A stretch of DNA of 5,627 nt. It comes from a virus. Location of the stretch: the IMG/VR virus record IMGVR_UViG_3300017770_005808; one strand, written 5' to 3'. The notes beneath the pieces were generated by a model, which was given only the letters and a program-made list of their open reading frames with translations, was not told the DNA's origin and did no database searches. Position numbers and translations under genes: made by a program. Each line of letters starts with the position of its first letter. Position 1 is the stretch's first letter. Positions 3,025 to 5,627 of the stretch are shown in pieces.

Positions 3025-3069
3025 GGCAGAACGGAACTCCAATACGTGGAGTTTCCGTTCCGTTCTGCC
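3025..3069 (-). other. Strong stem-loop immediately after the peptidase stop codon (13-bp perfect stem, bulge, 3-bp extension)
   Basis: 3025-3037 (ggcagaacggaac) pairs perfectly with 3057-3069 (gttccgttctgcc). The inner tcc (3038-3040) pairs with gga (3048-3050) around the loop aatacgt. The right arm contains a tandem ttccg ttccg duplication, which allows slipped alternative pairings. No U-tract follows directly on the coding strand, so it is not a canonical intrinsic terminator. Confidence 0.6.
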
Positions 3070-3654
3070 TTAGTCGACTTCATCGACATAAATGGGACGT
3101 CCTATTTTCGGCTCGTCTTTACGAAGCCGCCAGTTTTTCAACTGCCAATGTGCTGGGTCGTAGAAATTCCAATCGCCACCCCAATCTAATTTAAGATTGC
3201 GTTTTCTTGCAATTTCTTTACCTATCGACCCAACAATGTCCCATTCTTTTTTGCTAAGGTTCCAATATCTTGTGGCGTGAACTATATCCACTGCACAACC
3301 ATATTGATGCGGTGAATTACCGCCCTTAGCTTTACTTCTCCCTTGCGCGTGTAATTCGTTTTGACGTTGCTCATCGCGCAACATTTCAAACGCTAAAACA
3401 GGTATGTTTCGCGCGCTGCATGCTTTAAGCATTGCTTTCCAAAAATCGACAATCTCAGGGTGTACACCCTCATATTGCGTTTCTGTTTGTTTTTGAATTA
3501 CATCTTTTCGCTTCAGGGCTTTTGCGTCTGCTAGTGCATACGCTGCTACCGTATAATCTTTATGAACAGGCTCATCCCTAAACCACGCCTGAACGCGATC
3601 TAGGAACTTCACCCATTTCATAAACTTATTCGGCGGTCGTTGCTCCTGTTGCAT
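3070..3654 (-). CDS. Zinc D,D- / L-Ala-D-Glu-type peptidase, family M15 (VanY-like phage endolysin fold); peptidoglycan hydrolase
   Basis: A 194-aa ORF. The signature is LRDEQRQNELHAQGRSKAKGGNSPHQYGCAVDIVH ... LKLDWGGDWNFYDPAHWQL. That is the SxHxxGxAxD (H-x6-D) plus WGGDW...D..H pattern of M15 peptidases. Putative Zn ligands are H116 (3309..3307), D123 (3288..3286) and H169 (3150..3148). An AGAGGG Shine-Dalgarno at 3665..3660 lies 5 nt before the ATG at 3654. It overlaps the upstream ORF by 29 nt. There is no N-terminal hydrophobic segment. Confidence 0.9.
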   Translation of the reverse strand: MQQEQRPPNKFMKWVKFLDRVQAWFRDEPVHKDYTVAAYALADAKALKRKDVIQKQTETQYEGVHPEIVDFWKAMLKACSARNIPVLAFEMLRDEQRQNELHAQGRSKAKGGNSPHQYGCAVDIVHATRYWNLSKKEWDIVGSIGKEIARKRNLKLDWGGDWNFYDPAHWQLKNWRLRKDEPKIGRPIYVDEVD

Positions 3655-4174
3655 CGTCGCCCTCTAATTGCTCACTCTGTGCCTCCGGCACTGGCTGTTG
3701 CTCCTGTTCGCTACTTTGCTGAGAAACTTGTTCCCTCAACTTTGCCAGTTCTGCGCGCTCGTCTGCCATCGCAGCGTCGCGTCGCTCTTCGTTTAATTTT
3801 ACCCACTTCATCATCCGCGCAAACTCATCGTTATTGCGTACCCGTGGCTCTATATTAACATAACTGTCTTTCTCAACTGGCGCCATACGTTGGTCAACGT
3901 CTCGGATGTTCACAAACACCGATGCGCCCTTTTCCGCTTTAATTTGCACCCAACTGCTTCCGACTGCTGTATATTCTACAGTCATTTTATCGTCCGCTGC
4001 GCCCTGCAATACGGCTTCTTTCATATCCGCATTGTCCGCCGCCCAAACTTCAATTTTTGAGTTTGCGTTTACTTGAAAAGTAACGCGCTTTGCTTTGCTA
4101 CTTTCAAATGCAATTACCGCTCCAGCTTTTACTTGTTGCCATTCTGTCAATGACCCATTCTTAAAGTGCTTCAT
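3626..4174 (-). CDS. Hypothetical 182-aa structural-module protein (beta-rich N-terminal half, helical middle, acidic Gln/Glu-rich tail); possible scaffold or spike/decoration protein
   Basis: A long ORF with a GGAG Shine-Dalgarno (4187..4184) 9 nt before the ATG at 4174, directly downstream of the capsid gene. The N-terminal ~95 aa show an alternating hydrophobic/polar pattern (VIAFESSKAKRVTFQVNANSKIEVWAA..., MTVEYTAVGSSWVQIKAEKGASVFVNI). A predicted helix follows (EFARMMKWVKLNEERRDAAMADERAELAKLREQ), then the tail SSEQEQQPVPEAQSEQLEGDD. I recognise no family signature. Confidence 0.75.
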   Translation of the reverse strand: MKHFKNGSLTEWQQVKAGAVIAFESSKAKRVTFQVNANSKIEVWAADNADMKEAVLQGAADDKMTVEYTAVGSSWVQIKAEKGASVFVNIRDVDQRMAPVEKDSYVNIEPRVRNNDEFARMMKWVKLNEERRDAAMADERAELAKLREQVSQQSSEQEQQPVPEAQSEQLEGDDATGATTAE

Positions 4175-4233: not shown

Positions 4234-5627
4234 TTACTTGACGATGCGAGCGCTATCGACCAAGTCTGTGATTTCCTGATAATCAGACGTTGCGTCTGTT
4301 TCCAACAACCGCTGTCCAAATACCGTATTGCCCGTAATTTCGATGTCTGAAATACACGTTATCTCAAAAGCGTCTGCGACCTGATCGCTAAACACTTTTT
4401 TATGCAAACCTGACACCAAATAAAAATCTTCCGACAAAGTCGGGTCAGTTTGTTCTACGGTCCAAATTTTTGCACGATCTGAATCGAACGCATCGCTTGC
4501 TGGTCGGTAATATTTACCACCCACATTTACCATATCGCGCTGATATTCATGATTTAACGGTGCATATCCAAACGTACCGTTTGGTGTACTGTGGTTAACG
4601 TCCAGGTGGTCATTTTTTACAACTGACACTTGTTCTGGATCCAAAACATCACGCAAATAATTTGGTAAATTATCTGGATTTGTTTCGTACAAGAAATAAT
4701 CTTTCTTGCGTTCCCACATCTGTTCCGGAACAATTTCCGCCGTAATCATTATTACACCGCCTGTATTCATTTGCGGTGTTCGAATTGAACATTCCACACT
4801 AGCAAATCCATTTGTAACACTTGTATCCAAATTTGCAGCGTCTGTTGCATAACGTTGATTATATCCAATCATTGTTGATTTTTTACTCAACAAAATTGGT
4901 TGCTTCATTGTTTCTTCTGGAACGCGAATGCCTTCCATCAACATGTCAATGATGTGCTCGTCATCAATCCCATCATACATGCTACGCACTTTAGCAAACG
5001 CTGCTGTTTTCTTTGCTTGATCAATATCCGCTAATGACATCGTAGCGTTGCCGCCAGACGTCAATTCCGCGTATAAATTATTCCAAACATGTTCTCCATC
5101 AGCATTTGTTGTTGTCGCGGGACTAGTCGTATCAGATGGCGTTCTATGACCATTATAATACAAAACATTCTGCGACACCAATGGCGCTTCAAACGTCAAA
5201 CCGTTTAACGCTACTTCGCCATCAATCAACTTTTGGTCAAAATCTGGAACAATATGATTATTGTCCAACGACCAAAACGCTTCTGCCAAATTATGATCAT
5301 AAGCATTGCGCAACGGCAGCGAAGCTGACCGAGCTTTACGTCTATGATTAACAATTGCATTATAAGCTTCAACAACTATACTGTTATTTTGAACTGAGTT
5401 AGTATGAAGCCCCATCATTTGGTAAAACGTTCCTCGACCATACGCATTAGACGTATCAAACGAACTGCTATTAGCAACTGTACCTACAGCGCTACCATCC
5501 CAATATTTATTGCTTTCAAAAAACGGAACCACACTTCCGCCAATGCCCGTTTCGCCTTTATATGACCGGTTCAATTCTTCCATAGAACCGTTAAAACGAT
5601 CAAACGCAAGCATTGGTACATAATGCG
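4234..5627 (-). CDS. VP1: Major capsid protein (F / VP1 jelly-roll), 5'-truncated by the window end; full gene = 349..1 joined to 5504..4234 on the circle, 539 aa
   Basis: The largest ORF in the window. The frame stays open past the track start (5613) to the window edge and continues in copy A at 1..349. The C-terminal half contains FGYAPLNHEYQRDMVNVGGKYYR, resembling the conserved FGYQ.R..EYR segment of gokushovirus VP1. Size and position are typical of Microviridae capsid genes. The stop TAA is at 4236..4234. Confidence 0.95.
   Translation of the reverse strand, partial: HYVPMLAFDRFNGSMEELNRSYKGETGIGGSVVPFFESNKYWDGSAVGTVANSSSFDTSNAYGRGTFYQMMGLHTNSVQNNSIVVEAYNAIVNHRRKARSASLPLRNAYDHNLAEAFWSLDNNHIVPDFDQKLIDGEVALNGLTFEAPLVSQNVLYYNGHRTPSDTTSPATTTNADGEHVWNNLYAELTSGGNATMSLADIDQAKKTAAFAKVRSMYDGIDDEHIIDMLMEGIRVPEETMKQPILLSKKSTMIGYNQRYATDAANLDTSVTNGFASVECSIRTPQMNTGGVIMITAEIVPEQMWERKKDYFLYETNPDNLPNYLRDVLDPEQVSVVKNDHLDVNHSTPNGTFGYAPLNHEYQRDMVNVGGKYYRPASDAFDSDRAKIWTVEQTDPTLSEDFYLVSGLHKKVFSDQVADAFEITCISDIEITGNTVFGQRLLETDATSDYQEITDLVDSARIVK
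5505..5627. repeat. Terminal redundancy copy B, identical to 1..123
   Basis: See copy A. The match is exact over 123 nt up to the window end. Confidence 0.95.

Follow-up and report, generated by a model that had tools for sequence, protein, structure and literature searches.

We analysed a stretch of viral DNA of 5,627 nucleotides (nt), IMG/VR record IMGVR_UViG_3300017770_005808, referred to below as the window, in which a gene at positions 3070-3654 encodes a peptidase of the M15 family. Because bases 1-123 are repeated exactly at 5505-5627, a terminal redundancy of 123 nt, the window represents one circular genome of 5,504 nt; all of its genes are carried on the minus strand (Table 1). The gene order (VP2, VP1, a gene of 182 amino acids (aa), peptidase, Rep), borne by a single strand of a small circular genome, matches that of the microvirus subfamily Occultatumvirinae, for which the order VP2-VP1-peptidase-VP4 has been reported (PMC11499846). 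The closest isolates are the Roseobacter phages CRPss-151, CRPss-152, CRPss-153 and CRPss-155, with about 71% nt identity across 44-46% of the genome. The major capsid protein (MCP) of the window is 67-69% identical to those of the four phages over 100% of its length, and in CRPss-152 the Rep and VP2 proteins are 62% and 37% identical to their counterparts here. The CRPss phages were assigned to the proposed subfamily Occultatumvirinae by Zhang et al. 2024 (PMC11499846). Judged by these comparisons, the window is an Occultatumvirinae microvirus, and it is a species-level lineage separate from the CRPss-15x phages. The IMG/VR contigs L002 to L005 encode a peptidase 97-99% identical to that of the window.

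The peptidase open reading frame (ORF) begins with ATG, encodes 194 aa and, at 585 of 5,504 nt, occupies 10.6% of the genome. An earlier reading of this DNA from its letters alone, here called the original prediction, had described a complete M15 zinc peptidase taking up about 11 percent of a microvirus genome, preceded by its own Shine-Dalgarno sequence, placed between the capsid module and the replication gene, and overlapping the ORF upstream by 29 nt; all of these features were borne out. The upstream ORF ends at 3626, and the annotation of CRPss-152 shows an identical 29-nt overlap. The profile search proposed at that time as a check gave a significant M15 match: the Pfam model Peptidase_M15_4 scores 40.1 bits against a cut-off of 25 (E 5.4e-10) and VanY scores 25.9 bits (cut-off 25). 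Five PHROG endolysin families also match the protein, the best being phrog_465 (E 3.4e-24). The metal triad of the form H-x6-D...H, previously described as intact, consists of H116 and D123 in the motif SPHQYGCAVD and H169 in the motif YDPAH, which also contains D166. All four residues are invariant across 44 aligned homologues and align with the SxHxxGxAxD and DxxH motifs of LysB4 and LysECD7.

An AlphaFold 2 (AF2) model of the peptidase has a predicted local distance difference test score (pLDDT) of 88.5. Foldseek matched this model with probability 1.0 (E 8e-8 to 3e-6) to LysECD7 (8q2g), ChiX (5opz), Ply500 (2vo9), the RB49 enzyme (23ri) and LysB4 (6akv), and the T5 endolysin (2mxz) was matched as well; at the level of the fold, the comparison with the Ply500 and T5 enzymes that had been suggested for this protein is also in agreement. 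Sequence matches in the PDB were to LysB4, LysECD7, Ply500 and ChiX. Because the L-alanoyl-D-glutamate endopeptidases match best, and carboxypeptidases of the VanY and LdcB types less well, we read the peptidase as an M15C-type endolysin. In isolated phages, the related proteins bear the annotation M15 metallopeptidase or endolysin. By sequence and predicted structure the protein is an M15/LAS-fold zinc metallopeptidase, and its most probable target is the L-Ala-D-Glu bond in the stem peptides of peptidoglycan.

No export segment, whether a signal peptide, a signal-anchor-release (SAR) sequence or a transmembrane (TM) segment, was found in the peptidase, whose highest Kyte-Doolittle mean over 19 residues (KD19) is 0.98. 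Among 88 full-length homologues, none reaches a Kyte-Doolittle value of 1.6 over 17 residues. The N-terminus is polar and cationic and has no hydrophobic core, which rules out a signal-peptide or SAR endolysin, as the original prediction had also concluded. Translation from the internal Met12 as the main start was likewise rejected, since the Shine-Dalgarno sequence precedes the ATG at 3654 and homologues conserve residues 6-11 (RPPNKF); one database homologue (P0014) is annotated from the equivalent of Met12.

The region in front of the catalytic core is shorter and better conserved than first thought. It had been described as some 80 aa that match nothing recognisable, which was overstated: an extension does precede the core, but the core begins at about residue 60, residues ~30-58 form conserved helices, and only residues ~1-28 are specific to the lineage. 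In the conserved helices, which have pLDDT values of 83-96, conservation of A37 and L41 is 90% or more. The ratio of nonsynonymous to synonymous substitution rates (dN/dS) shows purifying selection on the gene, at 0.04-0.14 over codons 11-60 against 0.05-0.09 in the core. Since selection on codons 11-60 is as strong as on the core, the N-terminal extension is translated and functional.

Residues 7-26 have the highest hydrophobic moment of the whole peptidase (0.60), and AF2 places a helix at residues 9-25 (pLDDT 63-75) that is free of the core. Divergent homologues retain a cationic amphipathic helix with different sequences, for example RVVQRFLRRLQRRW. By a threshold criterion, a strongly amphipathic cationic 18-mer stands at the extreme N-terminus of 41 of the 88 homologues. 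In a shuffle test of the homologues with long extensions, 36 of 61 were more amphipathic than their own shuffles (p<0.05), the value for the window being p=0.07; residues 2-29 of this group have a median net charge of +5. A profile of the extension, searched against 1.84 billion representative sequences, retrieved 24 proteins of similar size, all matched at the N-terminus, and nine of ten that were scanned carry an M15 domain. The extension as a mobile module borne by other enzymes was rejected, the profile search finding N-terminal matches only, mostly with M15. The helix probably mediates contact with a membrane, either docking at the inner membrane or breaching the outer membrane.

Small membrane proteins upstream of VP2

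According to the original prediction the enzyme would need a partner to reach the murein, and small membrane ORFs at 1221-1574 were pointed to in this connection. The present results fit that suggestion. Three small membrane ORFs, orf64, orf35 and orf33, are located there. The orf64 start codon is TTG, with ATG at the same position in the loci L001, L046, L048 and L049. Its protein has a KD19 of 1.96 and ends in ERSARDE, and in the AF2 model it forms a helical hairpin (H2-27/H32-63) with an invariant Gly29 at the turn. The dN/dS values are 0-0.10 for orf64 and 0-0.12 for orf35, and substitutions are overwhelmingly synonymous. On this evidence the small membrane ORFs are real, conserved coding genes under purifying selection.

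Nearly every complete relative carries a gene pair of this kind between the Arg-rich gene and VP2. The first gene encodes 59-66 aa with the motif LKPxIRRxG(T/S)...G...DLxLS, and the second, whose ATG overlaps the end of the first, specifies a protein some 31 aa long that spans the membrane once. The pairing is kept down to about 30% identity of the orf64 protein. In a sublineage comprising L006, L009, L011 and L015 the partner has 75-91 aa instead of about 31; an extra soluble, acidic region forms its N-terminal part and the TM segment is C-terminal, so that it looks tail-anchored. A chain of overlaps runs through the module in the window, with orf64 and orf35 sharing 8 nt, orf35 and orf33 joined by TGATG, and orf33 and VP2 by TAATG. 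This arrangement suggests that the membrane proteins are translationally coupled to the pilot protein VP2.

As a database query, orf64 alone found four near-identical matches only, and a family profile was needed to reach further. With that profile, 14 proteins were retrieved that carry a precomputed assignment to Pfam Phage_holin_10 (PF23987), at E 1e-15 to 1e-10. These come from Rhizobium microviruses and prophages, and one bears the name 'Pam3-gp28 family putative phage holin'; they sit in integrated microviruses with the same gene order. Conversely, 8 of 18 diverse members of the orf64 family match Phage_holin_10 directly (best E 1e-5), and a few weakly match PHROG holin families. At the level of profiles, then, orf64 is related to the Pam3-gp28 family of putative holins.

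The endolysin and the membrane genes differ in how closely they follow the rest of the genome. Identity to the window, compared with that of the MCP, gives a Spearman rho of 0.83 for the M15 gene (n=47), 0.79 for orf182 and 0.42 for orf64. Because its identity tracks the capsid and all of its nearest relatives are microviral, the peptidase appears to be vertically inherited within the group; for the same reasons a recent transfer from a tailed phage or a host was rejected, and no donor was found, though no formal tree was built. The segment at about 1198-1724, comprising a non-coding region with a dif-like site and orf64, orf35 and orf33, shows 76-84% nt identity to L046, L048 and L049. Their orf64 proteins are 81-91% identical to that of the window, while the capsid proteins are about 50% and the Rep proteins about 36% identical. 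Since the identity of the block is far above that of capsid and Rep, it has been swapped by recombination between distant lineages. Exchange of orf64 independently of the endolysin would be expected if the hole is non-specific, and holin genes commonly show mosaicism of this sort. The near-twins of the window and L046 belong to one IMG sample series.

Possible routes of the enzyme to the cell wall

We favor the explanation, with a probability of roughly 0.6, that the peptidase is a canonical holin-dependent endolysin and that the holin-like orf64, encoded some 1.7 kb upstream by the same strand, is its partner. The signal-less enzyme would be made and accumulated in the cytoplasm until, late in infection, orf64 would permeabilise the inner membrane and so give it access to the murein; orf35, if translationally coupled as it seems to be, would probably act together with orf64. 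Among complete genomes, 22 carry both peptidase and orf64, four carry neither, two have the peptidase only and none has orf64 only, counts that are not phylogenetically independent and that include a peptidase-less sample of four. The two peptidase-only genomes were so classed for want of a match to the orf64 hidden Markov model (HMM). One of them (L064) has a TM ORF of 81 aa alignable with the family, PF23987 being carried by near-identical proteins of Rhizobium microviruses; the other (L065) has a 77-aa TM ORF upstream of VP2. The four genomes with neither gene are CRPss-154 and three Ciona-associated microviruses. In the subfamily as a whole, which numbers roughly 250 genomes, subgroups 6 and 7 reportedly carry no peptidase. 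No close relatives of CRPss-154 were found in IMG/VR, and an alignment led by CRPss-154 retrieved mostly peptidase-carrying genomes.

Several points weigh against a holin-dependent endolysin. Besides the non-independence and small number of the genomes just mentioned, the four that lack both genes are among the more distant ones, with an MCP 36-44% identical to that of the window. Against Phage_holin_10, orf64 itself scores 17.3 bits, below the cut-off of 27, and for this reason we call it holin-like and not a member of that family. A literature search found no experimental paper on the function of Pam3 gp28, so that 'holin' is here a database name. The orf64 and endolysin genes are not adjacent, VP2, the capsid gene and orf182 lying between them. 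For the last step of lysis, no spanin or other gene for disruption of the outer membrane was recognised in the window. Finally, two-helix holins include the pinholins, which are unable to pass a folded enzyme of 22 kDa.

Alternatively, the enzyme might cross the inner membrane without any holin, by means of its N-terminal helix or a host route, and orf64 and orf35 might have a different task at the membrane, for example in superinfection exclusion or in the anchoring of replication or assembly. The persistence of the helix property in divergent homologues, in charge as in the shuffle test, would suit such an export, as would the free position of the helix in the AF2 model and the independent evolution of orf64, which is unlinked to the endolysin gene. 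Endolysins independent of a holin have been described, M4Lys being one (PMC7143992). Yet the strong helix is present in fewer than half of the homologues (41/88) and no homologue shows an export signal of another kind, orf64-family proteins repeatedly match a putative-holin family, and orf64 is absent from the four complete genomes that lack the peptidase; taken together, these observations make holin-independent export unlikely. We think it quite improbable that the peptidase is a component of the virion, bound to single-stranded DNA (ssDNA) or to the capsid through its Arg/Lys-rich N-terminus and opening the wall at entry. A packaged entry enzyme had been offered as an alternative in the original prediction, and nothing in our analysis supports packaging. 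The basic N-terminus does recall the DNA-associated internal proteins of microviruses, but one face of the helix is large, aromatic and hydrophobic, as is typical for binding to membranes rather than to DNA. T=1 capsids, moreover, have little spare volume. Infectious relatives such as CRPss-154 lack the gene, and entry therefore does not require the peptidase. The lysin Gp7 was detected in virions of the microvirus Ebor, though merely in trace amount (PMC11980548).

A non-lytic role, in which the enzyme would remodel the wall or condition the host as an accessory of the D-Ala-D-Ala carboxypeptidase type, is suggested by the names of the Pfam families, which refer to D-alanyl-D-alanine carboxypeptidase. 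The nearest solved relatives, however, are all lytic L-Ala-D-Glu endopeptidases, the best PHROG matches are endolysins, and an enzyme held in the cytoplasm for want of a signal has no means of remodelling the wall while the cell is intact, so that we give this role hardly any weight. The holin-dependent reading itself can be carried one step further. In analogy to phiKT gp28, a cationic phage peptide, the helix of the endolysin could disrupt the outer membrane. As a speculative and rather doubtful extension, it may be a built-in disruptor of the outer (or inner) membrane which, together with orf64 and orf35, would provide full three-step lysis by holin, endolysin and fused 'disruptin' without spanins.

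Other genes and a dif-like site

A quasi-palindrome resembling dif lies upstream of orf64, and its core agrees with E. coli dif (GGTGCGCATAATGTATATTATGTTAAAT) at 15 of 16 positions. Dif-like motifs with up to four mismatches were found 51-89 nt upstream of orf64 (249 nt in L044) in 71 of 89 related loci, and these sites make up 71 of the 80 plus-strand dif-like matches in 716 kb. The motif points to integration mediated by XerCD. Dif motifs were not identified in Occultatumvirinae prophages in the published description of the group (PMC11499846). In a Rhizobium chromosome, a microvirus prophage that starts at the holin-like gene and extends to Rep has direct repeats, TCGCATAATATACG(G/T)TATGGAAC, on both sides, which are a signature of dif/XerCD integration. 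The junction of this prophage, between Rep and the holin-like gene, is where the window has its dif-like motif.

Directly 3' of the endolysin stop codon, a stable hairpin closes the gene series and precedes Rep. It has no T-run and is not called by a simple terminator scan; it could be a terminator-like element or a signal for ssDNA replication or packaging. A consensus scan of the window for promoters and terminators gave nothing above chance.

The 539-aa capsid protein has no Pfam match, the classical microvirus capsid family included, and its truncated form has no PHROG match, yet it is 36-69% identical to annotated Occultatumvirinae capsids; profile libraries under-detect this subfamily. 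Pfam and PHROG searches likewise gave no match for orf182, the Arg-rich ORF or the truncated capsid ORF, and for VP2 sub-threshold Pfam matches only. The Arg-rich ORF shares the 3' end of Rep, read in another frame, and its conserved counterparts in relatives are 33-54% identical; it probably encodes a DNA-binding, charge-neutralising protein analogous to J/VP8. The orf182 protein is conserved and has an acidic, Gln/Glu-rich C-terminal tail, its gene always lies between the capsid and endolysin genes, and it may be a scaffolding protein.

Table 1. Coordinates of genes, protein segments and nucleic acid elements (window positions, except for the prophage repeats)
Feature	Position	Strand	Remarks
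M15 peptidase/endolysin gene, 194 aa	3654 to 3070	minus	last in transcription order, after orf182
Shine-Dalgarno sequence GAGGG	3660-3664	minus	5 nt before ATG at 3654; read from sequence
Cationic amphipathic helix, residues 7-26 (RPPNKFMKWVKFLDRVQAWF)	3577-3636	minus	unpacked on core in model
Residues 30-58, motif KDYxxAAxxLxD	3481-3567	minus	conserved helices, modelled packed on catalytic domain
Catalytic core, residues 60-176	3127-3477	minus	invariant columns; alignment to LysB4/LysECD7
Zinc ligands H116, D123, H169	3307-3309; 3286-3288; 3148-3150	minus	invariant columns
Catalytic D166	3157-3159	minus	DxxH (D166-P-A-H169), three residues before last His
Stable hairpin	3025-3069	minus	dG -27.1 kcal/mol, z -5.3; 0/200 shuffles fold as well
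Rep/VP4	2957 to 1935	minus	Pfam REP_ORF2-G2P match
Arg-rich ORF, 106 aa	2046 to 1726	minus	net charge +28; follows Rep, precedes membrane ORFs
Dif-like quasi-palindrome GCATAATATATATTATGCG	1608-1626 (wider context 1603-1630)	minus	52 nt upstream of orf64
orf64, 64-aa holin-like membrane protein	1574 to 1380	minus	two-helix hairpin; conserved, upstream of VP2
orf35, 32-aa single-pass membrane protein	1387 to 1289	minus	paired with orf64 in relatives
orf33, 29-aa single-pass membrane ORF	1289 to 1200	minus	only in close relatives of the window and L048; followed by VP2
VP2-like protein, 259 aa	1200 to 421	minus	
Capsid protein (VP1/MCP), 539 aa	349 to 1 and 5504 to 4234	minus	gene spans window ends
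orf182, 182-aa acidic-tailed protein	4174 to 3626	minus	after capsid gene in transcription order
Prophage direct repeats	L138 7926-7948 and 14195-14217; L139 14202		

Relation to known lysis systems

An M15 endolysin in the Occultatumvirinae is already published and is not new here; what the present analysis adds is the holin candidate, the amphipathic N-terminal helix and the dif-like site. Roux et al. 2012 described M15 peptidases from gut microviruses, for which they suggested a function as endolysins (PMC3394797), Rhizobium microviruses have been annotated with a lys gene (PMC9512667), and Zhang et al. 2024 reported an M15 metallopeptidase in five of six CRPss phages and in most Occultatumvirinae and assigned it to lysis (PMC11499846). 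The original prediction, which held that the presence of such an enzyme was probably not without precedent, was right in this, the peptidase having been published as a hallmark of the subfamily. The peptidases of CRPss-151/152/153/155/251, the Rhizobium 'endolysin' and those of tortoise, flying-fox and rat microviruses are the same gene at the same genome position. In the CRPss-15x phages the core is 55-70% identical to that of the window and the proteins are similar in length and in having an N-terminal extension; there is no difference of kind.

Among tailed phages, the L-alanoyl-D-glutamate endopeptidases T5 Lys, RB49, LysECD7, Ply500 and LysB4 (MEROPS M15C-type) resemble the window enzyme in the LAS fold, the zinc triad, the Asp of the DxxH motif and the lack of a signal peptide. 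Signal-less endolysins of tailed phages depend on a holin for their release. The M15C-type endolysins of this group are only 25-29% identical to the enzyme of the window, which differs from them in its extra cationic N-terminal helix of about 28 residues, in having no cell-wall-binding domain and in being encoded by an ssDNA genome of 5.5 kb. ChiX of Serratia marcescens, which gave the structural match 5opz, is also a signal-less L-Ala-D-Glu endopeptidase, and in the ChiX/ChiW system it is brought to the periplasm by a holin-like protein. That system differs in being a bacterial secretion accessory and not a phage lysis system, and its holin-like partner is unrelated. The Pam3-gp28 family (PF23987), whose model is matched by members of the orf64 family, consists of small membrane proteins of about 60-90 aa.

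No holin is named in any microvirus in the literature searched. A parallel by description is Ebor, an alphaproteobacterial microvirus of another subfamily, the Tainavirinae, which has a demonstrated peptidoglycan hydrolase, Gp7, and a small predicted membrane protein, Gp1 (PMC11980548); the likeness to the window is one of description. Bardy et al. 2025 showed that the Ebor lysin degrades peptidoglycan and, in virions, detected no more than traces of this protein (PMC11980548). For the outer membrane a parallel is offered by the 'disruptin' gp28 of phiKT, a cationic amphipathic peptide that disrupts this membrane in a phage without spanins (bioRxiv 10.1101/515445). Both gp28 and the window have a cationic amphipathic helix and no recognisable spanins; in the window the helix is fused to the endolysin, and the two are again likened by description. 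The orf64/orf35 pair is a concrete candidate for the export route, and the N-terminal helix a candidate for the outer-membrane step. If both were confirmed, genomes of this group would be among the smallest known with a holin-endolysin system, and a compact source of lysins active on Gram-negative bacteria.

By textbook account, microviruses need no muralytic enzyme for lysis. Protein E of phiX174 achieves lysis with a single gene, by inhibition of MraY and without such an enzyme. The window and phiX174 thus share lysis by a microvirus but are opposite in mechanism, E blocking wall synthesis whereas the window encodes a muralytic enzyme; an overlapping gene like E did not come to light in the window, no search having been aimed at one. 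The Occultatumvirinae, as already published, are a large and ocean-wide group of microviruses that use an endolysin instead, and a fused disruptin together with orf64 and orf35, if real, would be the first holin-endolysin system defined in the Microviridae, the textbook single-gene lysers.

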